Below are positions 1,217 through 60,841 of a DNA stretch of 64,000 nucleotides, piece by piece. Location: the NCBI GenBank assembly GCA_965228855.1, contig CBDDIJ010000003.1:2528001-2592000 (forward strand). The letters run 5' to 3'. The notes under the pieces are model-generated. The model made no database searches, had not been told where the DNA came from, and saw only the letters and a list, made by a program, of their open reading frames with translations. This DNA is from Candidatus Obscuribacterales bacterium (GTDB lineage Bacteria; Cyanobacteriota; Vampirovibrionia; Obscuribacterales; Obscuribacteraceae). The position numbers were made by a program, and so were the translations under genes. The first letter of the stretch is position 1; every line of letters begins with the position of its first letter.

Positions 1217-1319
1217 GGCGGTAAATAATTGGGGCGATGGGGGAAGAAACACGAACGCGATACAAAGGGTTATGGGGGGTATCGAGTTGCGTAGTAAAAC
1301 TTCAAGGGGCATTGGAAGT

Positions 1320-1333
1320 TTGATATACGTCAA
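1320..1333. promoter_or_regulatory. FNR/CRP-family-like palindromic site
   Basis: TTGAT-ATAC-GTCAA is a 9/10 match to the FNR consensus TTGAT-N4-ATCAA and lies in the divergent intergenic region. Confidence 0.35.
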
Positions 1334-19600: not shown

Positions 19601-22600
19601 CCGGTCAACCAACTGGTCAAACGCCGACCGGTCAGCAAACATCCGGTCAGACAGGAACAGCAACTCCGGATCCGCTTCCGAAAACCGGCACCGAACCTGG
19701 TACCACCACTCAAGTGCCATCCGGTCAATCAACATCCAACAACGCTGGTCCGACCGGTCAAACCACAACTGGTCAAACTACAACTGGTCAGACCACGACA
19801 GGTCAGCCACCGGCGGGTCAGACTCCGAGCGGTCAGACCCCCACAGGTCAGACGACTACCGGTCAAGAACCAGCACAGCAGTTGCCGAAGCAGTCGGACC
19901 CAGGTTCGACTTCGACGACAACCGGTCATCTCCCGACTTCAGGACAGACAACTCCAGGACAGACGCAGAGTCCGACTTCCGGTCAGACTACGGGTCAGAC
20001 GGATCCTCAAAGTCAACAGTCGCCCACTGGTCTGCCGTCCCAGACAGTTCCGAGCGGTCACGCCGGTCAAACACAAAATCCGACGGGAACGACAAGTCAA
20101 CAAGGGACAGCCTCGACTCCGACATCGGATCCATCCACATCACTACCAAAAACTGTCGACCCCAACGCGCCTGCCAGCACCACTGGCAACACCACGACTT
20201 CAACCCATACGGGAACGACACAGAGCGGTACAGTTCCAACTGGCACGAATACGACCGGCACGACGACAACCGGAACAACTCAAACCGGTACGAACCCGAC
20301 TGGAACGAGTCAATCGGGCACCGCGCCAACACAAACACCTCAGACCGGAGCTCCGTCAGGCTCCACACAAGGTGGAACCGTTCAAAACGGAAACGTGACC
20401 ACCGATCCATCTAGCGGCATGCCGGCAGGCACAACAACGAGCCATGCGACCCAGACAACTTCCACGGGCAATGCACCCGCCGGACCGTCATCCGATCCAG
20501 GAAGTATTGGGAACGCCTCCAGTCACGGCAGTGCTGCTCCAACGCATTCGTCGACCAGTGGACAGGCCGTCAATGCAGCGGTTCAGGATATGGCATCACA
20601 AATCGCCACGACCGCGGTCGTCGTCGCCGTTATCAACAGCATGTCCAGCCACGGCTCTCAGCAGCCTCAAGTTCAACAGAAACCCACCGTAGACCCGGGT
20701 TCCACAACGGTCAGCTCCACCCCGCCACAGCTACCGTCGTCCGCTCCGTCATCGTATTCGCAGCCGGCCAATCACTCCGGTTCCACAACCTACACGCCAC
20801 CAGCTAGCAGCACCACCAGCAATACCGACCCTTCGTCGAATACATCCGGCGGCTCTACCACGATTTCAACGGGCTCATCGACAACGCATACTTCATCGAC
20901 GTCGACGCAAGCTCCAGCATCGCCGCAACCGGCATCGGAACCAACTTCCTCATCGTCGCAGCCACAGTCGACTAACCCAGAGCCAAAACAAGTTGCGCAA
21001 GCATCCGAGCCGACAGCGCAACCGTCCCCGCAACATCACTCGAATGCACCGCAGACGAACACAGCGACAACGCCACCTTCCACGCATGCGCCTTCCGTCT
21101 CCACCACGGTTCAGCCAGGGACGCTACAGCAACAACCACAATCGTCGAACCCCGCTCATAGCATCTCAAACACTTCGCAGAATCAAACAGCTGAGCCCGC
21201 CCACAGCACCGCGACGAGTCAATCAGCGCAGCCAGCACCGGCAAACTCCGGCAACATAGCTTCGACTACAACTACTCAAAATTCGACCTCTTCGGCGCCC
21301 GATCCGTCGCAGGCATCTTCCGTCGGCAACACTGATGACGAACAATCTCACAGTCACGCATCGGCGGCCACCCATGCTAACGCGACCCAACAAGGTCCAG
21401 CCGACCCTGGTCAAAACGCTCAACCGACTACGACGACGGTCGTCCACACTCAAACAGCGAACCGTTCTCAACATCAGGGGCAGCAGAACACAGCTCCTCA
21501 ACCGCGCCAAGCAGCTCAGCCTGCTTCACACAACACTTCAGGCGCGCATGGACAGCAAGGACAAACACCCGCCCAGCAAGCTCCGGCTCACACCGCCAGC
21601 GGTGGCACCACTTCCGGCAACAGTTCATCTTCCACTTCGGGCAACACAGACCCCACCGCCACAACTGCGGCGAACTCCCCATCGACTTCCGCAGCGCACA
21701 CCACTAGTGCGACCACAGGGGCGCATGCTAGCGCGTCGCCGACTGGAGCGCAGGCAAGCACAGCTCAGGGCACTCCGGCGGATCCAGCTGCGAAAACCAA
21801 CCTGAATAATACAGATCCAAACAATGATCCCAATGCTGTTGGAATCGTAAGTAACACACAAGCAGACCCAAGTTCTTCATCAAGCGACCCAACGGCAAAT
21901 AGTCAAGATCCAGCTCAAAGTCAGATATCCCAAGATCCATCGATGGCCCAAGATCCTTCGATGACTCAAGATCCTGCAGGTGTCCAAGATCCTTCAATTG
22001 TCCAGGACCCTTCAACGTCTCAGGATCCATCGACTACCCAAGAGCCTTCAACAACTCAAGCTCAAGATCCGAGTTCAGCTCAGCAACAACAGGAGCCGTC
22101 CGAGTCCCAGAAGCAGGCGCCGTCTTCATCGTCCGAGGAGTCCGATGTCACAGCTATTTCAGATCGCAGCGAGCAAATGGAAGCTCAGAAATACGCCAAC
22201 GACAGTCAAGAAACTCAACTGCAGCGCGAGCCTCAGGAGTCTATCGATAAGCAGCCTGTCGTCGATGACTGGTCCGTTGAACCGACCTACGACGCTGCCG
22301 CTGAGCGCGCGCGTATAGAGGCGCAAGTCGACTCCTATTTTGAATCGCAAAAGACTGTCGATCCTCCGTTCGTCGACATGTCCGGCGACAGGGTCATAGA
22401 AAAGCACATGCCGGATGGCACCACGCTGCTGACGTTTAACGACGGAGTCTCCGCCTGGGTTAAGGGCGATCAAGTCACGGTAATTGATTCAGAAGGAGAC
22501 ATATCAAGCTTCGTTGGTCGCATCGACACCGCCGATGGCAACGTCACCATATACGATGCCAACGACATTGTCATTCATTCAACAGAACCGATAGTCGAAT

Positions 22601-25552: not shown

Positions 25553-26128
25553 TCAGTCTGCCGTCAGCTCCCGGAATCTAGTAAGTTCGCCATCATGGGT
25601 CATGTTGCGGAGCTTGTAAACAACATCGACGGTAATTCGCTCACCCTCAACTGTTAGAAAGTGGTGATTGTTATCATCGTCGAAAAAAACCGCATAGTGT
25701 TTCAGCGTACCGGGTTTCTGCTCCCAGTAGTAAAACAACGAGCGTCCATTGAATTTCGCACCTGGAACTCTTTTGCGCTCACCCCAGACATCGACAATGA
25801 TTCCAGCATCGTCCATCATGAGTACAATCTCTTCGGCGGGTCCCTCGTCCGCATCTTGAAACGGCAGCTGCGGAGGATGTAGAACCAAAAATTCATCTGT
25901 GAATTCTGCTACCGGAGCATTGCGACCAGCAGAGGAGAACGTTTTTCCGCGACTGTCGCGCAGCGTTTTTTTCAGGTCACGAACATCGAGTTCGTCCACA
26001 AAACTGAGCGATTCGGTAAACTGCTCACCGGATGGGAAAGCATTTCCTGTGCCGGTCGGAGAAACACCTGGCAGACTTGCATGTCCGCCCTGGGCATCGT
26101 TGTTAGATTCGTCGTCTTGAGGGTCCAT
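25553..26128 (-). CDS. Hypothetical acidic protein (191 aa), last gene of the ATPase operon
   Basis: ATG-initiated ORF 45 nt downstream of the HerA-like gene; disordered N-terminus and a beta-rich C-terminal domain. Confidence 0.75.
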   Translation of the reverse strand: MDPQDDESNNDAQGGHASLPGVSPTGTGNAFPSGEQFTESLSFVDELDVRDLKKTLRDSRGKTFSSAGRNAPVAEFTDEFLVLHPPQLPFQDADEGPAEEIVLMMDDAGIIVDVWGERKRVPGAKFNGRSLFYYWEQKPGTLKHYAVFFDDDNNHHFLTVEGERITVDVVYKLRNMTHDGELTRFRELTAD

Positions 26129-26173: not shown

Positions 26174-29100
26174 CTAACCTTGTTGTTCCCCGCCGCCTTC
26201 TTCACTTTCCTTCTGGAAATTCTCCAGAGCTGTTCTTACCTTGTGGAGCAAGACCAACTGAGCGTCCGTAGATAGCTGCTGATCCTTAATCAAGTGCGCC
26301 GCCAAACAGTACGCCAGATCGACATCCCCCTGGCTTACCAGACGTTCAGTAAGCAGTCGGCAGAACCACGCAGCAGAGTCGGAAGCCGGCGTGTCCTTTC
26401 GGTTAATCGAAGAATTGAAGTCGAATTTGATTTTTGGATCTCGAACAACTTCCGACACTTCGAATCGATACAAACACTTCGAAGTGCACGGACCACAGGT
26501 AGGAAGCGGTCCCTGGTCACGTTTATGCAATTCGATAAAATCATCGCGCCACTGGCGCAAAACGTTGATGTCCAGTTTTCGGTTCACTTCAGTGGGTTGG
26601 AAGGCTGGTCTCAAGAGGTTCAACCATCGCATGTGCTGCTCTCTCACCTGGTCGTAAAACCAATAATTTTCCTCGCCTTTGCGCTCGAAATATCGTTCGG
26701 TCGCCTGAGTCAGAACGCACCAGGTGATGCCGGTAATATTTCCGGTTCTCGCCCGACCGCCGATGACCCGCTGAATTTCGTGGATAATCTGGGCACGAAA
26801 GTGAACCAGCTGAGTCAAATCTTTCAGCGTGGATAAGAGATAGCGGTTGTAGACTTGCCTGAAAAGCGTATCGTCAGCGACGGGAACTGCTGTGTCCAGA
26901 ATCGTCGAATCGCATCGGTGCAAACAAAAACGGCAGCCGAGATGCCGGTCGAACTTGCCGACGATATCTAACGGTTTCATCGCCTGCCTGACGACTTCAT
27001 CAGATTCTTCCGGTGTCCTCGGCGGTGGCACCTCTTTTGTCTTGTCGAACATGATCGCAAGGTGGAACGGTTGTTCCATCTTCTCAGCGTAAACAATCGC
27101 GCGCCCCTGTCCGAGCGCTGTTACGTGCCTCTTTTGAATGTCGTCCAAGTTCATAGCACCGCCCATGGAGTCACGGTCATCGACCGCCACGATACGGTGC
27201 ATAACTTTCAAGTTAGTGTTCTTCAACGCTTCCGGAGCCAGTTTGTTCGGGATTTGGTCCGCGATGATGAACCCTTGTCCATACGAACGAATTTCTGCAA
27301 GCATGTTGGTGAAGAATTCAACTGCTTTACCCGCAGGGTTGGCGGATTCACCTGATTGCCCGGTCGGCACGTTCTTCAAAAGACGGTGAGCCTCTTCGAT
27401 CAACATGACGTGTTTCAAGTCATCGTGCGGACCGCCGGCTTCTCGATATTCATAGAGGAATACGAGCAACATTCCCATGAGGAAAGACTTTTCACTATCT
27501 TCGGAAACCATCTTCAGTTCGATAACTGTAGGTCTTTTGAACAGCGCTTCAGCAGGGATTGACCGGCGCGTGTTTAGCATCTGCCCCTTACCGCCAATCA
27601 GTAGTGAGCCGATACGGGCTTTCAGAGCGGCTTGTACGTCAGGTCCGATTCTTTCTGAATATCCGAAACTCTCGACGACCGGATCGATAATTTCAAAAAG
27701 ATCCTTCATTGTCGGGTAAATTTCCGGCGGGCAATCGGGGTCGCCAGGGTCGATTCCCGGAGGCAGTCGCCTGTTCTTGTTGTTTACCAGATCCCATCCG
27801 CGAACGTTATAAATTTCGTTCAACGCTTTTTCCAATACCTGCGGCATCGGAGAATACATTTCGAAACTGGCGTTAAATACTGACTTGAGCGCGTCCAGGT
27901 GGGTTTGAACTTTTACGCCTCGCATGATTTCGAAAGGGTTCAATCGAAACGGTGATACTGTTTCATCACCCAGAGAAAACGCCTGTCCAATACCTTTAAA
28001 CTGTTCGGACATCAGCATCATGTGCCGATATTCTGATTTCGCCGGCTCGATAACCATGAATGGAATCTTGTAATTCCAAAGTTGACCCAGCAAGTAGAAG
28101 CAAGTATTCGTCTTGCCGCCCCCTGTTACTCCGCAGACAATGGTGTGTTTCTGCATAGCGTCAACGTCGATGTAATAAAGGTTTCCCGTATCCATGCCGC
28201 GATCGAGGATGTTCCCAATCGCGATCGTTCGCGTCGGATCCTTTGGAGGAACCGGCGCTAGGGAAAACTCTGCGGATCTTCGAATTCGGAAGCCCGGCAT
28301 CTCACGCTTCGGCAAATGAACAAACGCAGACAGCATGCGAGAGTTCAGCGGCGTCAAAAATTTGTACTCTAAGAGATCTTGGAAGATTTCATCGTTTCGT
28401 TTGTTTCTAAGCAATCCGAAAGATTGTACGTGAGGTTGAAGCCCCTTGATCTCGTGCGTGCGAAGCGGTGTCGGACGGCTGGTCTCATCAACATACGTTG
28501 CGCGAATCAAGGACTGTAGCCTGACAAATACAGAACGATCCGGAGCAAAGAAGTAAACAGCAGTCAACCAGTGTCCGACCGCGATACCCAGCTGAACATG
28601 CTTCAAGTAAGCATCTTGAAGTTCGAGATAATATTTGATTCTTCGTTTCTTTTCCGGGTCTTCGTTTTCCTGTGCGCGCTGAATCTGGTCGACAACAGTC
28701 ATCTCTTCCCGGTTTACTTTCTGGTTTGGAATCGGGATTGCGAGCACGAGGAAGCCGAAGTCATGCCCCTGAAGACCAGTAGCAAGACGTTCTATCTGTT
28801 CCGATTCCATGGTATCACCGGCAGTGGACTTCAAAGCCGGGATTCCTGTAACAAGACCGGTATGGACAGCAAGTGGATCAACCATGCGCTTCATCTGCTC
28901 CGTCGTAAACGGCTCATTATGAATATCAACACCGTTGTAGACACTGTGCATGATCGAGCGCAAAGACGTATAAGCAACCATATTCGCACTGCTGTCGCCG
29001 TTGCCGGTTGAGTCGGCAGGCAGCGAGACGCCCATATAGTAGTTGACCCCGGTCTTGTTTCCGAGTACAACGAACGAAAGATTAGCTTTCTGGCTGTGCA

Positions 29101-29374
29101 AGCCGGTTAAGGCATCCTCAGACAGGTACATACGCTTGGGCGGCTTGCTCGGATCCTGGTCTTGTTGAGGCTGTTGACTCTGTTGATTCTTTTCGCGCTC
29201 GATGTCCCAAGACCGCAAGACACCATCGATGCGCACGAAGGTTAGGTCAGGGAGCGGCCAACTGTGCAACTGGGCTCCGTCGAACGGTGTGACCTCGAGG
29301 TCATCAAGGTCATAGCGCCTGAGGTCGGCGATTTTCTCTTCCCAAATGTTGCGGTCTCTAGATGTACTCACCAA
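26174..29374 (-). CDS. HerA/FtsK-superfamily (DUF87-type) ATPase with N-terminal extension and Cys-rich C-terminal domain
   Basis: Walker A GVTGGGKT (~28110-28133), Walker B VMLIEEAHRLL, family motif LAEIRSYGQGFIIADQIPNKL...KNTNLKVMHRI; C-terminal CRFCLHRC and CGPCTSKC. TTG/GTG start. Confidence 0.88.
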   Translation of the reverse strand: MVSTSRDRNIWEEKIADLRRYDLDDLEVTPFDGAQLHSWPLPDLTFVRIDGVLRSWDIEREKNQQSQQPQQDQDPSKPPKRMYLSEDALTGLHSQKANLSFVVLGNKTGVNYYMGVSLPADSTGNGDSSANMVAYTSLRSIMHSVYNGVDIHNEPFTTEQMKRMVDPLAVHTGLVTGIPALKSTAGDTMESEQIERLATGLQGHDFGFLVLAIPIPNQKVNREEMTVVDQIQRAQENEDPEKKRRIKYYLELQDAYLKHVQLGIAVGHWLTAVYFFAPDRSVFVRLQSLIRATYVDETSRPTPLRTHEIKGLQPHVQSFGLLRNKRNDEIFQDLLEYKFLTPLNSRMLSAFVHLPKREMPGFRIRRSAEFSLAPVPPKDPTRTIAIGNILDRGMDTGNLYYIDVDAMQKHTIVCGVTGGGKTNTCFYLLGQLWNYKIPFMVIEPAKSEYRHMMLMSEQFKGIGQAFSLGDETVSPFRLNPFEIMRGVKVQTHLDALKSVFNASFEMYSPMPQVLEKALNEIYNVRGWDLVNNKNRRLPPGIDPGDPDCPPEIYPTMKDLFEIIDPVVESFGYSERIGPDVQAALKARIGSLLIGGKGQMLNTRRSIPAEALFKRPTVIELKMVSEDSEKSFLMGMLLVFLYEYREAGGPHDDLKHVMLIEEAHRLLKNVPTGQSGESANPAGKAVEFFTNMLAEIRSYGQGFIIADQIPNKLAPEALKNTNLKVMHRIVAVDDRDSMGGAMNLDDIQKRHVTALGQGRAIVYAEKMEQPFHLAIMFDKTKEVPPPRTPEESDEVVRQAMKPLDIVGKFDRHLGCRFCLHRCDSTILDTAVPVADDTLFRQVYNRYLLSTLKDLTQLVHFRAQIIHEIQRVIGGRARTGNITGITWCVLTQATERYFERKGEENYWFYDQVREQHMRWLNLLRPAFQPTEVNRKLDINVLRQWRDDFIELHKRDQGPLPTCGPCTSKCLYRFEVSEVVRDPKIKFDFNSSINRKDTPASDSAAWFCRLLTERLVSQGDVDLAYCLAAHLIKDQQLSTDAQLVLLHKVRTALENFQKESEEGGGEQQG

Positions 29375-29544
29375 TCAAGGAATCCTGTAGACGACGTTCT
29401 GTGTAATGACTTCTTGTACTAATTGAATTACTGATCTAACTATACACGTGACTCATCTAAAACTCTGCTCCTGTCAGTAAATATGCCCCTTTGCCCTTCG
29501 CAGATCCGAAGATTACCGAGCGGCGACTGATAATTGTTCGCATC

Positions 29545-31515
29545 TCAGCCACCGCCACCGGGAGTGGCGAACCCGCCTTGGGTCGGCATGCCCTGCGGCA
29601 TAGCTCCTTGCGGTGGATAGCCTTGCTGTTGCGGATAACCTTGCTGCGGATAACCTTGTTGGGGGGCGACCTGCTGTTGTGGGTAGCCCTGCTGAGGGAA
29701 GCCTGGCTGTCCCTGCGGATTCTGCTGACCAGACATCCCGGGCGGCTGCGAGCCTTGCAGTCCCGTCGCACCCGGTTGGGCCATCAATTGATTCGGCAAG
29801 CCGGCTCGCCATGTCCCTTTCAGTCGCTCCTCATCTGTTTTTCTCCAGGAATAACTACCTGAGGCAAAGGAGCCATCCTGATTCTGCCCGATCGTTCCGC
29901 TAAAAAGAATCGGCCATATGTAGCCGACTGAGTCGTACTGCTTCTGCAGCGATATTATGTTTCCTTTGGAAACTTCGCCGGTAAGCGTGAAATCACCTAC
30001 ATTGTCGCGCCCCTTACCACTTATGCTTTTGCCGGATTGCCTGATCTCTACTCCAAAACTCTGAAAAGGTTGCCCACCTTCAGAATCAGTTAGAAGGACC
30101 ATCCATTGAGATGGCAATGCAGCACCATTAGCAGTGGCACCTCCCATTAACTGCCCACCACTGAGTTCACCAAGTTTGGTGTACACCACAAAGCCGATCA
30201 CAGCTAAAACACCAACGACGCCAACCATGGCGGCAACCATTGCCAGTGGATTTTTCTTAGGTTTAGGTCGCGCGGCAGCCTTTGCCTCTGCCCTCATCTT
30301 GCCAATATCAATCTCCTGTTCCAGAGGTGCTCGTTTGGGATTAAACACACTTCGCTCTCTCGGCTTCTCGATCAGCAGGGCATCACCTGCGGTATCATCA
30401 TCTTCAGCCTCGTTAGAGACAGATGGTCCTTGAATGAACTTCGATCGAAACTCATCGCGTCCTTCCGGCGTTTCGAAACCTATGACGCCGCTGCTTTGCA
30501 GCGCGCCTTGCATGCGCAGTGCCGCGATTCTGCTAAGTCCCTCTTCAAAGGATAATCTGCTGTCGATGTTTAAAGAAGATTCGTTGTGCTGATCACTATC
30601 ATCGCCGTCATTGTTCGCATCATGAAATGACAGAGCGTTGGCTGAAAGCGAGACCGCGCTTAAAGGCAATTCTTGCACAAAGACAATATTGAAATCACTT
30701 GAGGCGGGAAGCAAACCAAATACGGGCACACCGGCAGCTGCCTCCTGAGCTTGTGTGAGACATATCGTCTGACCATCGTTTTCCTGGACAACCAGCAATA
30801 GCGAGTCGGCAAGCATGAATGATGGATAAGCTGTACGAACGATCTTCGATGTCTTGCCAGTCGCATCCGAGGACTCTGATTTAGCAACTGCTCCTCTAAA
30901 CGACGCGGGTTCCACATCCTGTAATGAACTATCCGAAGCGGGTGCAATTACTTGCTCCGACGAATTTCGCTGTATCTCGGCAGACGAAGAAACAACCGCA
31001 TCCGCGCCGATTTGAGCAACTGTGCTCTCGGAAGAAGAAGAAGAAGAAGAAACAAGTTCGCGGGCAGAAGGCTCAGAGGTACGAATCGCAGCTCTGAAAA
31101 AATCGTTCTTCTCATCACCTTTTGCTGGTTGCGGTGGTCCGAAGTCAGCAAACATGCCCTCGGCCAGAAGCGTTTGGCTCATAGGCTTACTTTCATCAGC
31201 ACGCTGAACATCCCCGGGGTCCTGGAGAAAAGCACGACTTCCGTGAAACTGCCTCGGTTTTGGAGTCAGGGCGTCTTTGAATTTACACCTGGTAACAACC
31301 CGCTCCATTACCAAAGGATCGTTCTCCGGACGCAGATGCTGGGGGCTCGAAGCAGGCGCACGTTGAATAACCAGGTTGGGCATTACGGTCGGAGAGTACC
31401 GCGACATTACGCTGCCGCAGTCACGACAATTTTTCACTCGCTGCCTGAGGACGACGCCGCAATGCTGGCAAATCAACAGGCCTGCGTTCGCGTCCTGCGT
31501 CCACTTATTGTTCAT
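29545..31515 (-). CDS. Zinc ribbon / disordered linker / single TM / extracytoplasmic beta-domain protein with QQGYP-rich tail (656 aa)
   Basis: N-terminal CQHC...CRDC; TM LAMVAAMVGVVGVLAVIGFVVY; beta-strand domain; its ATG overlaps the upstream stop (TAATG). Confidence 0.85.
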   Translation of the reverse strand: MNNKWTQDANAGLLICQHCGVVLRQRVKNCRDCGSVMSRYSPTVMPNLVIQRAPASSPQHLRPENDPLVMERVVTRCKFKDALTPKPRQFHGSRAFLQDPGDVQRADESKPMSQTLLAEGMFADFGPPQPAKGDEKNDFFRAAIRTSEPSARELVSSSSSSSESTVAQIGADAVVSSSAEIQRNSSEQVIAPASDSSLQDVEPASFRGAVAKSESSDATGKTSKIVRTAYPSFMLADSLLLVVQENDGQTICLTQAQEAAAGVPVFGLLPASSDFNIVFVQELPLSAVSLSANALSFHDANNDGDDSDQHNESSLNIDSRLSFEEGLSRIAALRMQGALQSSGVIGFETPEGRDEFRSKFIQGPSVSNEAEDDDTAGDALLIEKPRERSVFNPKRAPLEQEIDIGKMRAEAKAAARPKPKKNPLAMVAAMVGVVGVLAVIGFVVYTKLGELSGGQLMGGATANGAALPSQWMVLLTDSEGGQPFQSFGVEIRQSGKSISGKGRDNVGDFTLTGEVSKGNIISLQKQYDSVGYIWPILFSGTIGQNQDGSFASGSYSWRKTDEERLKGTWRAGLPNQLMAQPGATGLQGSQPPGMSGQQNPQGQPGFPQQGYPQQQVAPQQGYPQQGYPQQQGYPPQGAMPQGMPTQGGFATPGGGG

Positions 31516-34500
31516 TAGCTGGCCTTGTCGCTATCGCTGTCTCTATCCTTGCTCTTCTTGCTCTTCTTCTTATCGCCGAAACTATCAGTGATGGCGTGCA
31601 TTTTCTCAACCAACTTGCGATTGATCTTCTTCTCCGAGATGTCTTTGAAGTCAGGCGCCCTCATCTTAAAGACACCAGCTACGGTACCAACTCTGTAACA
31701 GAAATACGTCTGAATTTCTTGACCGACGATTCTGTCGATATTCAGCTTTTCTTCGTCCATAATCAACTCGAACTGTGGCGAAGTGTTGACCTGGTTAAAG
31801 AAGTTCTGAATCGTCTGGTGTTTGATCTTTCGTCCATCCACACGGAACATCTGCGGACCAAGCATATCGCCGTCCTTCTTAGAAAGTGCGAAGACAGCCA
31901 TGGTGCCCATATTGATCGTCAGTTGGTTTCTGTAGTCCTCGGGAAGGTGTTGCAGAGTTTTGATACTGCCGACGAAACCAATCTGGTACCGACGAGTTTC
32001 CGAAGTAATCGTTTCGATTGTCTCCTTCTCGATGAAGCTGTCCATTTCATCGAGATAGAGAGAAACTGGACGATCGTCGTTATTCGACTTCGACAAGTTC
32101 ATAGCCGCTTGCTGAATTCCAGTCACAATCAAGCTTCCCAACAGGTTGGCGTTCTGGTCCAACTCGCCTTGTGGAACTTTTACAATCAGAATCTTTTTCT
32201 GCTTGATGATGTCTTTCAATTTAAGGTCACTGACCGGCTTCGTAAGAATCGGCCGAATACGTCCATCCGAAAGCATCGGTCCAACTCTGTTCAAAATCGG
32301 CTCAACCCAGTTGATCCACTGATCCGTTCTAGCCAGCTTCTTGTACTGGTTCCAAGTTTCCAGAATGGTAATGTACTCGGTCTTGTCGTGTTTTTTACGC
32401 TCAACAGCTTCCAACATGATGTCGCGGAAATCGTTGTCCTGCAGGAGGTTTGGCAGGTCGGTCAAGGTTCGTCCATTGGCCATCAACAGCAAGGCCGCGT
32501 TTCTCAAAATGTTGGCAGTTTGGGCGTTCCACTGACTCTGAGCCCCTGGAGGCTCGGTGTAAATTGCTTTAAAACCGTGAACGATTGCCGACGATGCCGC
32601 TTGCAGGTCGCCATCATCCGGCATCTCGAGAGGGTTGTACGCTAATGAACCGGCTTTGTACGTCGGGTCTACGAGTACCACGCGCTTAGCGTATTTCGAA
32701 CCTTCAGGCTGCGAAGCGATCCACTCAATGATCAAATCACACAGCTGTCCGTCGGAATCGATCAAAACAACTGCTCGATCTTCAGACTTGATGTCATGCG
32801 TGATCATTGATGCCATCAGCCGCGTCTTACCCTTGTCACCGCCGCCGATGCACAATATATGTGGGTTGGCCCTGCGAATATCAGGAGGAAGATTCAAGAA
32901 TTTAGGTGTCCAGAATGACCACCAGCCCCACTCCATGCGCGTCCCGAACGGAGTGCCGCCTGGTGTGAGAGCCTTACCGTACTCACGAACCATTTTCATA
33001 TGATCAGGTCTGAACTGCGACGGAATGTATTTTTGTTTCTCCCAAACGTTCATCCAGCCCGAAGGGCCGAAGAGCTTGAGGAAGAACAAGAATATGAATA
33101 CACCCAGCGCTACCAAACCGAGCGCGATGGTTAGGAACATCTGCTGGAGGTTGCCAGGTCCAGGTTTTCCGGTTGTCGCGGGAGTAGGTACGTTGACCAG
33201 ACCAGGCTTGGGCAGACTCATATTAGGCAATGCAAACGCACCTGCTTGAGGATTGTTGGCAGCAACCATCGTCTGCGATGCGCGCCACTTGCCTCGAATA
33301 GGTATGACTTTCGACGGCTTCAATGTGCTGAATGAAGAGCCGACGCGCTTCTGAGTTTGATAGGCTCCGACGGCTTGAAGCTGAGCGCCGTTAGGTATCA
33401 ACTTTCCTTGAAAGACTATGTACTCATTGTGAGCGTTGTATTTATGCCGCGACTCCTGATCGTATCTCATGTTGAACATGATGACGTCCGGTGCTTGCAG
33501 TTGCCCCTGTATCTCGAACACACCAGACGAGTCCTTGCCCTGACCGGCAAAATTGACGCCGCCCTGGTTCAAATTCATTTGTCCGGTCAGGATCTTCGCT
33601 CCGACCTGACTTTCAATTGTCCAGTTGCCACCAACGACTGGAATTCCATTGGTGAACTCCGCCGCAGGCGCCTGTTGTCCCTGACCAGGCATCCCCTGAC
33701 CTGGCATCGTCTGTCCGGGTTGACCCTGTCCGGGCATACCTTGCATGCCCCCCTGCCCAGGCATTCCACCGGCAGCCGACATCGCACCCTGACCGGCGAG
33801 ACCACCGAAAGCCCCAGCTCCCTGTCCCAATCCGGAGCCAGCTCCAGAACGGCCACCGCCCAGACCTCCCAGACCACCGAGGGCTCCCATGCCACCACCT
33901 GTGGGGGCTTGGGCAGTCTGCTGTTGTGCTGCGCTACCGTTCGCCATGTTGACGAAACTCATCACCCAGCCCGGGATCTGAATGGCAATAAAGAGCCCGA
34001 CTGCACATAGCACGCCGGCCGTTTTTCTTGAAACATTCAATCCTATGAATTTGACATCTTCTTCCAGCCAGCCGAGTGCGCCACCAGGTGCTCCGCTGGA
34101 AGCGTCATCTTCGTCTTCGTCGTCATCGGAAACCTTTCCTTTTTTGACTGCTTTCGTTATTGTCTTTGCTCTAGACTTAGGAGCAGTCTCATCACCACTG
34201 AAGTTCCGACGCTTCGGCGGTTTGTATTTCGGCTTATCATCATCGTCATCATCATCTTCTTCATCGGAAAGCTTGTCTTCGATGTCGCTCGAGGATGAAA
34301 CATTCGCATCATCGTCGCTGACCTTCAAGCGCGTCTTTGTCTGAGTCTGGGTCAAGCTCTTAGGCATGGCTACCTTAGGACGATCTTGGGCAGTTGAGTC
34401 TACCGCAGAATCAGGAGTCTGCTGCTGAGTGACGGAGGACGCCAGATCGGAACTGGTATCAGCGGAGACGGCCGGAGAACTGACATTTGGTTTATCGGAA

Positions 34501-36026
34501 TCATCGGAGAATGACTGTTTTCGGGCAGCAGCGCTGGCCGGGCTGGAAAAGAAATCAAAACCGTTATCGTCATCGCCGAAGAAACTCGAGGACTCCGCGC
34601 GCTTCATCTCCGGTTCCGGCGATGACACCGCGGGCGGTTCCGCTGCCGGCGCTGCGGCAATCGGAGCGACCGGCGCTGGCGGAGCGGCAGGAACCATTAG
34701 TGTTTCTGCACTTGGGGTGGCTGAGCGTGCGGAAAAACTTTCCAATGACGTGCTCGCCGTATCAGGTATATTGGTTTCAGCAGTGACATCCGACTCAATC
34801 GGATTTCGCTCCGGTTCTGCTTTGGTCTGAGGACCAAAGAAATCTTCGAGTTCAGATTTACTGCCGGCTTCAAAAAAGTCGTCCTGAGAATCTCGTGCGG
34901 CACCAGGCTCGGTACCAGGTGCGAAATTGTCCGCAAATGAACTTGTTTCGGAAGATGGCTCAGCCAGCGGACTCTCGGTGGCGGGCGAAACAGATTCAAG
35001 AGCAACCGACTCGCGAACCGGTGCTGTCGACTGGGTCGGCTCCACAGATTGAGAATCGCTCGGCGCCTGCGTAGCCTCAGCCCGTTTGTTCAACATCTGA
35101 TTGGCAACTGCTCCCACACCGATTCCGGCGCCAATGGCGATAGAAATTGCGGCTCCTGGGTGTGCCCCAAAGCCAGCCAGGTGCATGCTGGGATTTGTTG
35201 TAATCGAGGAGGATTGCGGTTGAGCCGCAGTCTCAGGTTGAACGTCTTGCGCCTCGAGATCTCGAGCAGCGGTTATCTCTGATGCGAGGGTCGGGAAATC
35301 AGTCGAGCTATCTTCCAGAGACATTTCGCCGAGCGCTTCAACCGCTTTGTTTTTCGGCTGCGCCGGCGGTTCAGGCTCTTCAATGAGCTCCACAGATTCG
35401 CGAGCATTTTTTAAGTAGTAATCGTTGGGACTTCCAGGACTGTAGAACCCGCTACCCGAGCTGGGAGCAGCGGGCTGTGCCTGCGGCTGAGGATCGGAAT
35501 TCCAGAATTCACCGGACGGCGCACTTGAAGAATTTTGCGCTCCAGGATCGACAAAGCGCCCCTCGGCAGGCGTCATCTGAGAGCCAGAGTTGCTCCAGCC
35601 GAAACCGTTAGGATCCTGAGCCGGGTCTGCGTACTGAAGAGTGGCGTACTGACTGCTGCCGCCGTTGCCTCCATATCCATCGTGCCCATTGCCGCCATAA
35701 CCGCCGTTGCCACCATTACCACTACCACCGTTACCCCCGTAGGCAGCATAGCCGGTTGTCGGAGAGTAGTCTTCTCCTCCGTCGTCGTACATCGGTGTGG
35801 ATGACACTTGCGGTCTCAGGGTCATGACACTGACCTGACGCTCAGTGACGACTCTCTCCAGCAGAAGATGGTCCTGGCTGTATCGCACGGCCAAAGGCGG
35901 ACGCTCAACCGGAAAGTTGGGCATCGCAGTCGGTGAGTTCAATGCCAGCTGTATGCCGCATCCGGAGCAATGCTTCCCCTTTGTCCGAATAACTACCCCA
36001 CAACTCTGGCAAATAAGAAGTTTCAA
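31515..36026 (-). CDS. Type IV coupling protein-like ATPase (VirD4/TraG/TrwB family) with zinc ribbon, long acidic linker, two TMs and a periplasmic beta-domain (1503 aa)
   Basis: HILCIGGGDKGKT Walker A, VVLIDSDG, YNPLE, LYLDE Walker B, ANLLGSLIVT, SETRRY; TMs GVLCAVGLFIAIQIPGWV and MFLTIALGLVALGVFIFLFFL; N-terminal CQSC...CSGC. TTG start. Confidence 0.85.
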   Translation of the reverse strand: MKLLICQSCGVVIRTKGKHCSGCGIQLALNSPTAMPNFPVERPPLAVRYSQDHLLLERVVTERQVSVMTLRPQVSSTPMYDDGGEDYSPTTGYAAYGGNGGSGNGGNGGYGGNGHDGYGGNGGSSQYATLQYADPAQDPNGFGWSNSGSQMTPAEGRFVDPGAQNSSSAPSGEFWNSDPQPQAQPAAPSSGSGFYSPGSPNDYYLKNARESVELIEEPEPPAQPKNKAVEALGEMSLEDSSTDFPTLASEITAARDLEAQDVQPETAAQPQSSSITTNPSMHLAGFGAHPGAAISIAIGAGIGVGAVANQMLNKRAEATQAPSDSQSVEPTQSTAPVRESVALESVSPATESPLAEPSSETSSFADNFAPGTEPGAARDSQDDFFEAGSKSELEDFFGPQTKAEPERNPIESDVTAETNIPDTASTSLESFSARSATPSAETLMVPAAPPAPVAPIAAAPAAEPPAVSSPEPEMKRAESSSFFGDDDNGFDFFSSPASAAARKQSFSDDSDKPNVSSPAVSADTSSDLASSVTQQQTPDSAVDSTAQDRPKVAMPKSLTQTQTKTRLKVSDDDANVSSSSDIEDKLSDEEDDDDDDDKPKYKPPKRRNFSGDETAPKSRAKTITKAVKKGKVSDDDEDEDDASSGAPGGALGWLEEDVKFIGLNVSRKTAGVLCAVGLFIAIQIPGWVMSFVNMANGSAAQQQTAQAPTGGGMGALGGLGGLGGGRSGAGSGLGQGAGAFGGLAGQGAMSAAGGMPGQGGMQGMPGQGQPGQTMPGQGMPGQGQQAPAAEFTNGIPVVGGNWTIESQVGAKILTGQMNLNQGGVNFAGQGKDSSGVFEIQGQLQAPDVIMFNMRYDQESRHKYNAHNEYIVFQGKLIPNGAQLQAVGAYQTQKRVGSSFSTLKPSKVIPIRGKWRASQTMVAANNPQAGAFALPNMSLPKPGLVNVPTPATTGKPGPGNLQQMFLTIALGLVALGVFIFLFFLKLFGPSGWMNVWEKQKYIPSQFRPDHMKMVREYGKALTPGGTPFGTRMEWGWWSFWTPKFLNLPPDIRRANPHILCIGGGDKGKTRLMASMITHDIKSEDRAVVLIDSDGQLCDLIIEWIASQPEGSKYAKRVVLVDPTYKAGSLAYNPLEMPDDGDLQAASSAIVHGFKAIYTEPPGAQSQWNAQTANILRNAALLLMANGRTLTDLPNLLQDNDFRDIMLEAVERKKHDKTEYITILETWNQYKKLARTDQWINWVEPILNRVGPMLSDGRIRPILTKPVSDLKLKDIIKQKKILIVKVPQGELDQNANLLGSLIVTGIQQAAMNLSKSNNDDRPVSLYLDEMDSFIEKETIETITSETRRYQIGFVGSIKTLQHLPEDYRNQLTINMGTMAVFALSKKDGDMLGPQMFRVDGRKIKHQTIQNFFNQVNTSPQFELIMDEEKLNIDRIVGQEIQTYFCYRVGTVAGVFKMRAPDFKDISEKKINRKLVEKMHAITDSFGDKKKSKKSKDRDSDSDKAS

Positions 36027-36657
36027 GGTAACGCTCCAATAGAATCTAAGAATTACTTACCCGGCTTTGGCGTTTCCCGCACAGCCCAGCGGCTGATTAA
36101 AAACACGGTTCGGAACAAAAGCCGTTCAACTAGCTTGAGAAACTCTGGGTTGTTAGTAAGTGTCGAACTGCCGAACGGACAAGCGATCTGGCTACTCAAG
36201 CTGCATACTAACCTCAGCAAATCCACTTGTCAAGCGGATCTATTACTAATCATCGCTCTTTTTAGGCAGTTTGTCTCGAAAAGATTAGGCAGATAAATCG
36301 GACATTCTCACGAAAACGAACCTCGAATTCGTTTTTCATTTATAAGAGTAGAACTAACAGCTTTCTACTGTTTACTGGGGTCCAGACAGTCATCAACAGT
36401 GCGAGTCGCGGCAAATAAATACCTCACCCAAAATTGAATTGAAGACATCCGCTAATCAAGGCATTAAACTAGGGACAGGCAGGAATTTGCCTGGGAGTTC
36501 ATCCTGACTACCTGCGCGTTTGCTTAAACAAACGAGATTGACGGAGAGCGAGCGCAGAGTTACCAGCGATTGCGGGTACAAGTAAATAAGGTGTATCCGA
36601 ATGTCAGATCACGGGGGCGACTGACACTCGGTGTAAGGATCTGGAGAAGGCAACCAA

Positions 36658-39600
36658 ATGGCACGGGACGAAGACAGTAACGGCAATGGCAATGGCAACG
36701 GAAATGGAAAGTCTGGAAGACAAGACTCGCCGCTCTCCGCTCGCAGAGCCCGTCTACGCTCATTAGCGAAACAGGCGCTGCCGCCGGATCCTTACTCAAA
36801 AAAGCAGGATGCGGAAGGCGAAGATCCAGCCGCGGGATTTGAATTTGCCGATCAGCAAGGAGCCGCGAGCGGAGCCGTCTCGCAGCCACAGCAGCCTACT
36901 CAACAGAATCCCGAACCCTGGCTCGATGAGGCCATGAAAGCAATCACCCAGGCTCCCACACAGGAAGGCGCGGTTCAGCAGCAACCACCTGCGATGCCAG
37001 TCGGTCACGATCCGAACATGCTCGGGATGCAGTCTCAGATAGGCGACGCGGGCTTTGCAGCAAGCGGCACCTACGGGCAATTTCCGCAAGAAAACCCATT
37101 TCCACCCGACCACTTCAACCAGGGTCAAGCGCAGTTTCCATCACCGCAACAACAGTTTCCGCAGGAACAGCCTCCGTTTCCGCAAGATCCGGCTCAGCAC
37201 TTCGGACAACAACCTGACATGAGCCAGTATGCGGTTTCAACGGCTCAAACAGCCCCTGTGACTCCTCCACCCAACCCCGCGGCGGCAGATATCTTCGGCG
37301 AACAGGATGGAGAATCCTTCGAAAGTTTTATGCAGGGTCCTCCCGAGGCTCCTACAGCCTTCATGGGGATGTCGCAGGAGCCGGCCGGTTATGGTCAGAT
37401 GCCTGCCACGCCGGTGATGCCGACAGAGCCATCGACAGGGTTGGCTCAGGAACAGCCTGTTGAACCACTTCCACAGTCGACATCGCAATCGATTGAGGTT
37501 TCCTACCTGCCCAACTCAAGCGACAAAGATTTCGCGTCAAGTTTGGATCTGGACTATGGAGATCTCGATGATTCCAAGGTTTCAGGCGAAACTGACTCCG
37601 TGACGTCTGAGACAGCCGGAGATGCACCTCCTTCCGAATCCGGTGGAGACTCCGATGCGGAACTGGAAAGCCGACCGTGGGAAGTGAATAAGCCAGGTCC
37701 CGGAAAGATTGAGGATGCCTGGTCCGCGGAAGATGATGGCACAAAAACAGTTGCACGCAATTTGGTGACGGAACCGCCCCGTGAACCTATACCTGCCAGA
37801 GAGGAAGAAGCGCCCAAGGAGCCGGCACCAGCCCCGAAGAAAAAGAGCCGGCGCAAATCTGATCCGGACGAGGTCTCGGAAAAAGCACCAGAGTTAAAGG
37901 CTTCTGATGAAGCGGACGAGCTGGGCTCGGAGAATTCGGAGAGTTCGGAGTCCGGCGAAGTAGAATTACAAAAAACTGAACGAAGACCAGCTCACTCAAA
38001 GAAGGTCGAAGAAGAAGAGAAGCCCGAACAGCAAGAAAGAGCAGAGAAGAAATTGCAAGACCCATCGCCTTCGACTGCGGACTCGCCATCAGGGTCTGTA
38101 GTTCCTGTTGAACTCCTCACGAAGTCACAAGCAGAAGCGCTGGAGTTGCTAACCTCAATCGACCAGGCGCTCGGTATCTGCGCAATGAATTTATCCTCGC
38201 TGCAGAGCGCGTCGATAGAACAGACCGACGTCATTAAGAACCTTCGCGAGACTCTTCAGAATCAAACATTTTTTGAACTGGGATTGAACCTTAACACCTT
38301 GATGGAATCCATGTCAGCCGCTCTCGAGCCGATGAAGGCAGTGGGCGAATTGGTTCCAGCCATCGATCAGCTGGTATCGACAATGGTGGCACAGGAGGAG
38401 GTCAAAAAGGAAACGCGTCTCAGCCCTGACAAGCTGGTCATGAGCCTTGCCGACCAACTCGGAAACGGTCAAATCGATCCATGGACGTTTAAATGTGCAT
38501 ACATGGCGGTCTATCCGGACGAGCATCCTGCCGATTTGCTTCATCGTCTCGTCGACCTGCTAGGCACCCAGAGACTATCGGGCGACATGTTCCGCGCCGC
38601 CTATGACGCGGTTCAAGCAGCTGAACCACCGCGTCGCGTAATGAATGGCGACAAGGAAGTAATTGAAGTCGTCAAGGAAGTAATCAAGGAAGTAGAAGTC
38701 GTTAAGGTTGTTCCGGACGAAGAGGTTCTTCGACAGCTTGAAGACTTGCGGCGAGCCAATGATGACCTCAAAGCTCTCGTCGACGCTAAGGATTCCGATG
38801 TCGGGACCAAGTTCGAGGAGCGCGAGCGTGAGATGTCTCAGCGCCTCGAAGAGAAAGAGCAAGAGCTGAACAAACGCCTCGGCGAGCGCGAAGCGGAGTT
38901 CGCAGAACTGCTCGCTTCCAAAGAGCACGAAATTCAAGAAACACAAGAGATGCTGCATTCGCGGTTCGAAGAATTCAATTCGCGATATGAGGAAATGGTC
39001 GAGACCGTCAACCAGAGAGACGAAGAGCTCAAGGTCAAAGACGATGACCTGATGCGTAAGGAATCTGAGATCACGCAACTCAAAGCTCAACTCGATGAGC
39101 TCAAGGACTCTTTCAAAGAAACCGTAGACAATTTACAAAAGCAACTGACTACCACCCAGAAAGCCGCTCAAGAAGCCAGCATGCAAGCACAAGCGGTGGC
39201 AAAACCGGAAGAGCCCCAAAAGCCGGCTTCAAACTTCTTCGACACCGAAGCCAACAAGCCCGCACCAACAGGCAATTTCCTGGACAGCCCCCAGGCTCAA
39301 CGACCGCTGTTCCAAAATCAGATGGATACGTTCAACAGCATGTCAAAGGCTCCGCCCAGCCAACCAGGTGGACCACCCACGCCTGGCGGACCGCCTAGCG
39401 AACCCAAACCGTTCGGCGGAGGCGCTCCGCCTACCGCTCCAATGCCGGAACCATCGAACCAGGCAGTACCAAAACCTCCGCAGCCATCGCCCGGCATGAG
39501 CTCACTGACAGGCACGGGCAGCTACGGAAGTGGCGTGCGCGCACAGGTTTTCGAAGTCATAGTACGCCAGGCGCTTGCGGGCGCGCCGTGGCGCGAAATC

Positions 39601-39687
39601 TGCGCCGGTCCAATGAGCGTCAACAACATATCGCCGGACGAAGTTGAATCCGAAGTCAAACGTCGCGAGCAACTGCTCAAGAAATAA
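36658..39687 (+). CDS. Disordered/coiled-coil hypothetical protein (1009 aa)
   Basis: GGAGAAGG RBS; P/Q/E-rich N-half, helical block (IDPWTFKCAYMAVYPDEHPADLLHRLVDLLG), long E/K/L coiled coil, short C-terminal globular motif. Confidence 0.85.
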   Translation: MARDEDSNGNGNGNGNGKSGRQDSPLSARRARLRSLAKQALPPDPYSKKQDAEGEDPAAGFEFADQQGAASGAVSQPQQPTQQNPEPWLDEAMKAITQAPTQEGAVQQQPPAMPVGHDPNMLGMQSQIGDAGFAASGTYGQFPQENPFPPDHFNQGQAQFPSPQQQFPQEQPPFPQDPAQHFGQQPDMSQYAVSTAQTAPVTPPPNPAAADIFGEQDGESFESFMQGPPEAPTAFMGMSQEPAGYGQMPATPVMPTEPSTGLAQEQPVEPLPQSTSQSIEVSYLPNSSDKDFASSLDLDYGDLDDSKVSGETDSVTSETAGDAPPSESGGDSDAELESRPWEVNKPGPGKIEDAWSAEDDGTKTVARNLVTEPPREPIPAREEEAPKEPAPAPKKKSRRKSDPDEVSEKAPELKASDEADELGSENSESSESGEVELQKTERRPAHSKKVEEEEKPEQQERAEKKLQDPSPSTADSPSGSVVPVELLTKSQAEALELLTSIDQALGICAMNLSSLQSASIEQTDVIKNLRETLQNQTFFELGLNLNTLMESMSAALEPMKAVGELVPAIDQLVSTMVAQEEVKKETRLSPDKLVMSLADQLGNGQIDPWTFKCAYMAVYPDEHPADLLHRLVDLLGTQRLSGDMFRAAYDAVQAAEPPRRVMNGDKEVIEVVKEVIKEVEVVKVVPDEEVLRQLEDLRRANDDLKALVDAKDSDVGTKFEEREREMSQRLEEKEQELNKRLGEREAEFAELLASKEHEIQETQEMLHSRFEEFNSRYEEMVETVNQRDEELKVKDDDLMRKESEITQLKAQLDELKDSFKETVDNLQKQLTTTQKAAQEASMQAQAVAKPEEPQKPASNFFDTEANKPAPTGNFLDSPQAQRPLFQNQMDTFNSMSKAPPSQPGGPPTPGGPPSEPKPFGGGAPPTAPMPEPSNQAVPKPPQPSPGMSSLTGTGSYGSGVRAQVFEVIVRQALAGAPWREICAGPMSVNNISPDEVESEVKRREQLLKK

Positions 39688-48928: not shown

Positions 48929-49200
48929 CGAGCGAAGTAACGTTTGTAACTTTCGCGCGAGAAACTGTCCCAACTCTGGCGCCTGAAATAAGTGCAGCTC
49001 AGCAGTTAATATCGCTTTTCGACGCAATAATTCATGAATCTGGCAAGCTTGAATGTGGTATTTTTCTAAGCTTGCAAAAGGCTTACGATCACAAGAGATT
49101 CCTGGAAGTATCGCTCTCATCGAGCCCCGAGCAATAAAACAAACAGGACCTGGCACAGGCGTCCTGGCGTAATCCATGTGCGTAATTGCAGGAGAAATTC

Positions 49201-60767: not shown

Positions 60768-60841
60768 CCTTCCAGTTGCAAGTTTCCTTGAAAATAAATA
60801 TCCATCACTCCATCACAATGTAGCGAAATCTCGGACGAAGG

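Follow-up and report, generated by a model that had tools for sequence, protein, structure and literature searches.

A predicted coupling-protein-fold ATPase in a conserved chromosomal module with a second ATPase and giant LysM proteins in Obscuribacterales

Introduction

Why should an uncultured bacterium keep a relative of the type IV coupling proteins (T4CPs) as an ordinary chromosomal gene? The question is raised by a 64,000-nucleotide stretch of DNA, called the window here, from a Candidatus Obscuribacterales bacterium (GenBank assembly GCA_965228855.1, contig CBDDIJ010000003.1, positions 2,528,001 to 2,592,000), within which we count positions from its first letter. Its reverse strand carries a gene for a membrane ATPase of 1503 amino acids (aa), which an earlier note, made from the letters alone, had described as a VirD4-like protein with a long N-terminal extension and altered ATPase motifs. 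That note missed what we take to be the main point, namely that this is an order-wide chromosomal gene standing in a conserved module together with a second ATPase and with giant proteins.

Our analysis leads us to propose that the membrane ATPase, with its predicted coupling-protein fold, and the second, VirB4-like ATPase are the receptor and the motor of a module, derived from a type IV secretion system (T4SS), that exports the giant proteins or anchors them to the wall. We hold this reading tentatively, at somewhat less than even confidence, and below we set out the evidence for it together with the alternatives on which each piece of evidence bears.

Fold and architecture of the ATPase

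The gene and its parts are as follows (TM, transmembrane segment).

31515..36026 (-): T4CP-like membrane ATPase, 1503 aa; starts at a TTG that GGAG precedes by 7 nt
35811..36026 (-): conserved N-terminal module, aa 1-72, a zinc ribbon CxxC-x10-CxxC (aa 6-23) followed by '...LLLERVV'; predicted cytoplasmic
34047..35810 (-): low-complexity, net-acidic linker, about aa 73-660, from hydropathy and composition
33960..34016 (-): TM1, aa 671-689, from hydropathy
33657..33929 (-): G/Q/M-rich spacer, aa 700-790; predicted periplasmic
33264..33638 (-): beta domain, about aa 797-921; predicted periplasmic, common to the truncated paralogue described below
33078..33134 (-): TM2, aa 965-983, strongly hydrophobic, from hydropathy
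31587..32969 (-): cytoplasmic ATPase of predicted TrwB/VirD4 fold, about aa 1020-1480, with inserted all-alpha domain, from the predicted fold and profile comparison
32823..32846 (-): Walker A, GGGDKGKT, aa 1061-1068, from the family alignment
32220..32609 (-): all-alpha domain, about aa 1140-1269; 58 of 130 columns invariant, the most conserved part
32046..32060 (-): Walker B, LYLDE, aa 1323-1327, from the alignment
31959..31961 (-): codon of K1356, Lys in place of the Gln conserved in T4CPs, from the alignment

AlphaFold2 (AF2) predicts a coupling-protein fold for the ATPase domain, complete with the all-alpha insert: the model of aa 790-1503 (predicted local distance difference test score, pLDDT, 76.6) matches TrwB best and then DotL. 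In a Foldseek search TrwB stands at the top (E 4.5e-11), followed by DndH-C, Cag-beta and DotL, while the VIA Z scores are 27.2 for TrwB (391 of 427 residues aligned), 25.7 for DotL, 24.7 for DndH-C and 22.9 for VirB4, with lower values for HerA (20.6), FtsK (16.7), EccC (15.6) and TcpA (15.2). The model has the RecA-like nucleotide-binding domain with inserted all-alpha domain that characterises the TrwB fold, and the anchor formed by TM1 and TM2 lies, as in T4CPs, N-terminal to and directly before that domain. Membership in the wider FtsK-HerA superfamily follows from a P-loop core and a basic residue after Walker B, and both ATPases of the module reach Z scores of 15-32 against its members.

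Support for T4CP kinship from sequence is weak but consistent, and that from structure is stronger. Two Pfam models score above their cut-offs, PF10412 (TrwB_AAD_bind) with 30.2 bits against 20.5 and PF02534 (T4SS-DNA_transf) with 22.9 against 20.1, and hhalign, run with a profile of 22 family members against six canonical T4CPs (VirD4 of a Ti plasmid, four further T4CPs from plasmids and this genome's own TraG on contig C4), gives a probability of 98.6% and an E-value of 9.6e-15. Sequence searches of solved structures, whether started from the isolated ATPase domain or from the family profile, yielded nothing significant (best E 0.68), and among NCBIfam models there were solely P-loop-level TraD matches far under their cut-offs. 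The kinship with VirD4 and TrwB that had been suggested earlier is thus borne out by the predicted fold, by hhalign and, weakly, by Pfam.

Ahead of the ATPase, hydropathy and composition of the single open reading frame (ORF) reproduce the order of parts that the earlier note had described, from ribbon through a linker of ~600 aa, TM, spacer and beta domain to the second TM and the ATPase. The zinc ribbon consists of CQSC at aa 6-9 and CSGC at aa 20-23. The linker is acidic (97 D+E against 42 K+R over aa 51-650), ranges from 51 to 729 aa among homologues (median 513) and contains, at aa 290-308, a weakly hydrophobic stretch rich in Gly; three hydrophobic segments precede Walker A in 18 of 72 ribbon-bearing homologues. 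In these 72 the spacing from TM2 to Walker A is held at 92-104 aa. The beta domain has eight strands in the AF2 prediction (pLDDT ~85-89), and an Atlas look-up named no family for it, all scores being below 0.9 with no family in common. Conservation is unevenly spread: beside the 58 of 130 invariant columns of the all-alpha domain, the nucleotide-binding parts have 19 of 88 and 23 of 120, and the beta domain 4 of 125.

Could so unusual a layout be an artefact, the assembly being chimeric or two genes having been called as one, so that a coupling protein has acquired the N-terminus of an unrelated protein? Two observations might be read in this way. In one relative (G012, locus L023, contig C2) the gene is split into a 959-aa ORF (2009-4888) and a 510-aa ATPase ORF (4960-6492), and the gene calls of 48 of the 120 database homologues leave out the zinc ribbon. 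However, single contigs (170 kb and 81 kb) from the runs of two studies cover window positions 29000-37000 with 0 differences, although those runs may themselves be the source of the assembly, and the one-ORF layout recurs in orthologues across genera. Moreover, 72 of the 120 homologues do have the ribbon, and the remainder mostly begin at a downstream ATG. We therefore consider the probability of an artefact to be practically negligible; the extension of ~1000 aa is real and, the same architecture being present in relatives, a family trait, so that the suspicion of a chimera can be dropped. The split in G012 falls just before TM2, so that its 959-aa ORF runs from ribbon to beta domain; it may be natural or a sequencing error. 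The sequencing runs listed for the stretch included none of RNA; one further run, labelled RNA-Seq and probably DNA, gave short contigs of a related strain only and so does not bear on expression.

The missing ribbons are explained by the start codons. Among 92 ribbon-bearing frames in the relatives' loci, 72 lack any in-frame ATG upstream of the ribbon; for 48 of these the nearest start is a TTG and for 24 a GTG, usually ~5 codons ahead of the first Cys (25 cases listed). Thus most of the 48 homologues without a ribbon are called so because the true start is TTG or GTG rather than ATG, with the practical consequence that many database entries miss the zinc ribbon.

The ATP site

How much of the catalytic machinery of a coupling protein remains? 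We read the motifs from an alignment of 22 family members, called A1, in which the number of a residue plus 789 gives the protein number, and we counted variants by applying a pattern to the 120 database homologues; the denominators below are the sites which that pattern located. In A1, G272, G277, K278 and D537 are invariant in all 22 sequences and residue 279 is T or S. The fourth residue of Walker A is D in 65 homologues, A in 36, S in 10, G in 6 and Q in 2 (119 located). Since only this position varies, the general P-loop GxxxxGK[ST] is intact. For comparison, five of the six canonical VirD4/TraG references read PTR[AS]GKG at Walker A, and 11 of 12 of the nearest relatives outside the family, among the matches listed, have GxxGxGK[ST]. 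The earlier claim of an altered Walker A is therefore right in that position 4 departs from GxxGxGK[ST], and overstated in that the general motif is kept and the position is not even fixed within the family. The Walker B Asp is invariant and is followed by Glu in 108 of 116 homologues (N in 4, D in 3, G in 1), so that the Walker A Lys and Walker B Asp-Glu expected of a T4CP are present, and the basic residue of 'R-[RK]-[YF]' (alignment position 557) is K in 84, R in 27 and T in 1 of 112.

The position after this basic motif is different. The ATPase contains the stretch SETRRYQIGFVGSIKTLQHL, with K1356 (K567 in A1) where T4CPs have Gln; in the profile-profile alignment it pairs with the Q of VirD4 'IIQSL'. 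The residue is K in 22 of 22 aligned relatives, and among the database homologues K in 108, R in 4 and Q in none (112 of 120 located, 8 being unmatched by the pattern). The equivalent residue is Q in all six canonical T4CPs; of the 40 closest outside relatives in an exhaustive library, 34 have Q and the others R (2), S (2), N (1) or a gap (1). The Gln that T4CPs carry at the strand end after Walker B, in Q-[SDN]-x-x-Q-L, is accordingly absent from the whole family. The earlier note was right that a Gln had been replaced, and the concern that such a substitution might be common in active T4CPs does not hold at this site. As the family has K or R at this site and most of its closest outside relatives have Gln, the alignments make the change from Gln to Lys a derived, family-wide trait.

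The conserved Gln of T4CPs is a sensor of the gamma-phosphate or of water, and its loss invites the interpretation, made in the earlier note, that the protein is a catalytically reduced ATPase acting mainly as a membrane scaffold or receptor; the second ATPase of the module would then supply the energy. The replacement of the Gln across the family (R in 4 of the 112 located) and the N, D or G in place of the Walker B Glu in 8 of 116 homologues speak for such a scaffold, but the invariance of the Walker A Lys and Walker B Asp and the Glu in 108 of 116 leave the reduced catalysis unsupported. Moreover, the nucleotide-binding parts, with the invariant columns given above, are unlike those of a decayed site, and a Lys at the sensor position could still contact the gamma-phosphate. 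We infer from these motifs that the ATP site is modified rather than dead, and we regard a mainly scaffolding role as unlikely, even though two properties of the neighbouring genes, to which we return, would fit it.

Distribution and chromosomal setting

T4CPs are encoded on mobile elements together with a relaxase, genes for mating-pair formation or both. Our survey covered 40 genomes of the class, from the two families of the order and from six other families. Every genome from the two Obscuribacterales families has the T4CP-like gene (24 of 24 and 3 of 3), against 0 of 13 from the other six. Close homologues carry the source names Candidatus Melainabacteria or Obscuribacterales, and a scan of the GTDB species genomes confirmed 105 stretches, of which 77 loci were kept; these are from Obscuribacterales-type metagenome-assembled genomes, or from unlabelled or oddly labelled ones, the odd labels being partly on contigs identical to those of relatives. 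In the exhaustive library ~100 family-level representatives are followed by a drop to 170-215 bits. Paralogous T4CP-like copies in other genomes were also considered as parts of the same arrangement and were set aside, as they lie in unrelated contexts.

The setting is ordinary chromosome: the window also contains genes for SelA, a SpoU methylase, EF-Tu and tRNAs. There is no relaxase near it: PF03432 matches in this genome lie solely on contigs C2 and C4, and PF08751 and PF03389 have no match in the genome. Two ordinary T4CP matches do occur in the genome, on C2 and C4, each beside a PF03432 relaxase match. Pfam and NCBIfam scans of the module found neither a relaxase nor other T4SS domains, and the channel and outer-membrane parts VirB6 to VirB10 were found neither nearby nor on the chromosome, with no TrbL match at the cut-off. 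The protein is thus not encoded with relaxase or mating-pair genes on a mobile element, as T4CPs are; the T4CP-like gene is vertically kept and chromosomal in Obscuribacterales and is no plasmid gene.

As for the ordinary T4SS genes of contig C4, they comprise TraG, canonical VirB4/TrbE and relaxase matches (C4:57076-57696, 60828-61913 and 64620-64880). Because its TraG is 91% identical to the TraG of alphaproteobacterial plasmids of Paracoccus and Mesorhizobium, C4 is probably a contaminant or a (broad-host) plasmid. The contamination estimate of the assembly is 5.78%.

The conserved module

The neighbours of the T4CP-like gene are the following.

29545..31515 (-): truncated paralogue, 656 aa, with zinc ribbon, linker, one TM, beta domain and Q/P-rich tail and without ATPase; its ATG overlaps the upstream stop (TAATG)
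26174..29374 (-): soluble ATPase of the FtsK-HerA superfamily, 1066 aa, with Cys-rich C-terminal helical domain; predicted fold nearest VirB4 and DndH-C
25553..26128 (-): conserved protein of 191 aa, of no known family, from family scans and synteny
36658..39687 (+): divergent protein of 1009 aa, with disordered N-terminal half, coiled coil and small C-terminal domain, from scans and synteny
7672..25497 (+): giant protein of 5941 aa, without signal peptide or TM, ending ...GKKISA; convergent, adjoins the 191-aa gene
1602..7109 (+): 1835-aa protein with the same C-terminal module, from domain scans
2..1333 (-): ORF of 1469 aa, of which the window includes the 5' part; the C-terminus likewise matches the DUF7718-like domain

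The order of the module is the divergent coiled-coil gene, the T4CP-like gene, an optional truncated paralogue, the 1066-aa ATPase, the 191-aa protein and, convergent to these, the giants. Among the 77 loci, the 1066-aa ATPase lies downstream in 48 of the 58 that extend at least 7 kb in that direction, the ten without it adjoining being second copies or belonging to the second family of the order, and the coiled-coil gene lies upstream in 51 of the 59 that extend at least 7 kb upstream. Where a locus holds the ATPase and at least 9.5 kb downstream, the C-terminus of a giant protein is convergent in 35 of 38 and the 191-aa gene is present in 31 of 38.

The 656-aa gene resembles the T4CP-like protein in its ribbon (48% over 63 aa) and in its beta domain (21%, E 6e-4). 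Since a congener holds a full, 1217-aa T4CP-like paralogue with ATPase at the same place, we read the 656-aa gene as a truncated paralogue. That this second copy is retained without an ATPase is one of the two properties that would suit a scaffold.

Two membrane proteins beyond the coiled-coil gene (40021-41649 and 41668-42639) were considered as parts of the module and rejected, being seen in 1 of 77 loci, that of a near-identical genome. The window also encodes, at 49186-55989, a 2267-aa protein rich in G, T, A and N with a weak haemagglutinin-repeat match; in the second family, copies of the 1066-aa ATPase lie convergent to repeat proteins similar to it.

What are the giants? They share a C-terminal module in which a charged coiled coil is followed by two LysM-like stretches, a CxxC...CxxC zinc ribbon, a linker and a DUF7718-like domain of ~100 aa; LysM (PF01476) is matched with 27.3 bits, over its cut-off. 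A hydropathy scan of the giant proteins found no TM and no hydrophobic N-terminus. A profile of the C-terminal domain (A2) finds 1-4 copies in every one of the 27 genomes of the order and none in the 13 others, which is the phyletic pattern of the T4CP-like gene; the genomes being kin, the agreement has no independent statistical weight. The tail is basic, of the type GKKLSA, with at least 2 K/R among the last ten residues in 29 of 30 C-terminal pieces.

The 1066-aa ATPase is strikingly well preserved, with ~110 clusters 77-96% identical in the main family and 56-60% identity in the second. Pfam assigns it to DUF87/HerA and FtsK only. In its AF2 model (pLDDT 77.5), Foldseek finds TrwK/VirB4 of R388 at the top (E 1.1e-15), with alignments over both domains; the VIA Z scores of the core are 32.0 for VirB4 (355 of 374 residues aligned), 32.1 for DndH-C and 28.0 for HerA, and full-length TrwK gives Z 23.0 with 577 of 799 residues aligned at a root-mean-square deviation of 12. 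It retains the canonical R...Q motif, and this, together with a conservation far above that of the T4CP-like protein, is the second property that would suit a division of labour between scaffold and energy source. Eight Cys of its C-terminal helical domain (about aa 800-1066, window 26174-26980, ~270 aa) recur in 15-16 of 16 orthologues, among them those of two CxxCxxxC motifs (C814/817/821 and C960/963/967), a pattern from which a metal or iron-sulfur site may be guessed.

Relatives of this ATPase occur elsewhere. A 701-aa paralogue (33% identity; G000:C3:2798041-2799957, locus L027 9982-12087) lacks the N-terminal domain and lies directly upstream of a reverse-transcriptase gene (RVT_1). Distant homologues are present in 3 of 200 other Cyanobacteriota genomes, with 36-38% identity over the core; at loci L029 and L030, one lies two genes downstream of ftsZ and the other after a SecDF P1-head-domain protein. 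We considered these homologues as instances of the same module and rejected them, as none adjoins a T4CP-like gene.

With two ATPases of the FtsK-HerA superfamily side by side, it is natural to ask whether the module pumps DNA, that is, whether both ATPases move DNA at or across the membrane, for example in a conjugation-like transfer with no known relaxase, in uptake or release or in clearing the chromosome at division, with the coiled-coil protein being DNA-associated. The closest solved folds, TrwB, DndH-C, HerA and FtsK, are DNA-dependent motors, the partner ATPase has weak NCBIfam matches to CedD and HerA models, and the coiled-coil protein has weak matches to SMC, JetC and LmuB. Furthermore, a search of 41 genomes from the class found no canonical FtsK and returned weak P-loop matches only. 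Yet the SMC-type matches are confined to the coiled coil, Pfam and NCBIfam find no relaxase, nuclease, NurA-like or DNA-binding domain in the module, and a DNA pump leaves unexplained both the strict linkage to the giant LysM proteins and the predicted periplasmic beta domain. We thus think a DNA pump rather doubtful. The exceptions in the FtsK search are two large multi-domain proteins in two genomes; a ~940-aa ORF (G000:C2:2005315-2005485 and equivalents) with a weak FtsK/SpoIIIE P-loop match of 25-33 bits is present in more than 20 of the 27 genomes of the order.

Many solved relatives of HerA belong to defence complexes, and so one may also think of an anti-phage or anti-plasmid module built on a HerA-type ATPase. 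PADLOC gives weak matches to HerA and mad8 models for the partner (best E 6.7e-12) and for the T4CP-like protein (best E 2.1e-5), and the paralogue of the partner adjoins a reverse transcriptase, as mentioned above. Against this, Pfam and PADLOC find no effector domain (nuclease, SIR2 or TIR) in the module, and the presence in 27 of 27 genomes, the fixed synteny and the 77-96% identity of the partner are unlike the patchy occurrence and fast evolution of defence genes. We accordingly regard defence as very unlikely.

Discussion

Our analysis indicates that the T4CP-like protein is an ATPase of coupling-protein fold that lacks two features of its family, the Gln and the mobile context, and that has a new N-terminal and periplasmic architecture. 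TrwB of R388, VirD4, TraG and DotL likewise have an N-terminal TM pair followed by a RecA-like nucleotide-binding domain with an all-alpha insert, a Walker A Lys and a Walker B Asp-Glu. In contrast to these, the protein described here has gained a zinc ribbon and an acidic linker of ~600 aa, has a predicted periplasmic loop of ~275 aa with a beta domain, carries Lys for the conserved Gln, is most conserved in its all-alpha domain, has no sequence match to a solved T4CP, and is encoded on the chromosome throughout an order without nearby relaxase or mating-pair genes. Its nearest relatives outside the family, TrwB_AAD_bind/DUF87 proteins of ~450-1200 aa from metagenomes, share the ATPase core (170-215 bits over profile positions ~250-610), the R-K-[YF] motif and Walker B; unlike our family, they keep the Gln (34 of 40) and GxxGxGK[ST] (11 of 12 among the matches listed).

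How could such a protein be connected with the giants? In the mechanism that we propose, the ribbon, the linker and the ATPase would lie in the cytoplasm and the G/Q/M-rich spacer and the beta domain in the periplasm. The all-alpha domain of T4CPs binds substrates or adaptors, and since it is here the most conserved part, an unchanging partner is indicated; we expect that this domain, or the arm that bears the zinc ribbon, would recognise a conserved partner, for which the basic-tailed C-terminal domain of the giants is a candidate, either directly or by way of the 191-aa protein. The T4CP-like subunit and the VirB4-like ATPase would then feed the giants over the inner membrane, translocation being presumably powered by ATP hydrolysis, which K1356 would modify without abolishing, and the LysM stretches would afterwards hold the giants on the wall.

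The pairing of a VirB4-type ATPase with a T4CP is the hallmark of T4SSs. For the second ATPase, VirB4/TrwK ranks first in Foldseek and scores a core Z of 32.0, level with DndH-C (32.1) and above HerA (28.0); it differs from VirB4 in the additional helical domain of ~270 aa at its C-terminus, where 8 Cys are conserved, and in having no VirB3, VirB6 or VirB8 partner. DndH-C of the DndFGH restriction system offers another comparison, as a TrwB-like motor outside conjugation (Z 24.7 with the T4CP-like protein, 32.1 with the 1066-aa partner); DndH-C, however, is soluble and works within a DNA-restriction complex, and no Dnd genes were seen in the module. A functional analogy may be drawn with EccC/EssC of type VII secretion, membrane-anchored ATPases of the same superfamily that recognise C-terminal signals of their protein substrates. 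They belong, however, to a different clade, have three tandem ATPase domains and are far less alike in fold (Z 15.6) and sequence.

Several points weigh against an export machine of T4SS descent. The kinship of the partner with VirB4 is weak in sequence (hhalign against one TrbE gives a probability of 37% and E 3.5e-4, and the VirB4 family PF03135 does not match the partner and in this genome matches on C4 only), for which reason we call it VirB4-like by predicted fold only. The route through the envelope is missing, since VirB6 to VirB10 were found neither nearby nor on the chromosome. According to PMC4027160, VirB4 is the sole ubiquitous protein of T4SSs, and their eight classes include a cyanobacterial one with homologues of VirB3, VirB6, VirB8, VirB9 and VirB10. 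Homologues of these five were not seen in the module. The relatives of both ATPases among TrwB, FtsK and HerA are mostly DNA motors, and in 8 of 116 homologues of the T4CP-like protein N, D or G stands in place of the Walker B Glu. The giants also carry a Cys4 zinc ribbon, and such ribbons are commoner in cytoplasmic proteins and unusual in exported cargo. Finally, in the second Obscuribacterales family the 1066-aa ATPase does not adjoin the T4CP-like gene, and up to three copies of it lie elsewhere, next to other repeat proteins without the DUF7718-like domain.

One may go further and suppose that the module represents an undescribed secretion apparatus of T4SS descent, reduced to the VirD4-like and VirB4-like ATPases and complemented by parts peculiar to the lineage, that would export signal-less giants of up to ~5900 aa by way of their basic-tailed C-terminal domain, with the ribbon arm and the change from Gln to Lys as adaptations to this cargo. 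We regard this more far-reaching version as doubtful. A literature search on secretion in Obscuribacterales and Melainabacteria, on coupling proteins and on DUF7718 returned no title or abstract opening that points to the module.

Coupling proteins are known from mobile conjugation or effector-translocation systems. Here, a relative of theirs is a fixed, order-wide chromosomal gene, tied to a conserved second ATPase and to giant proteins without a visible export route. If this link is functional, the module would define how giant proteins are placed on the surface in a poorly known, uncultured branch of the Cyanobacteriota, and it would provide a natural test case for the job that the conserved Gln performs in the motors of T4CPs.

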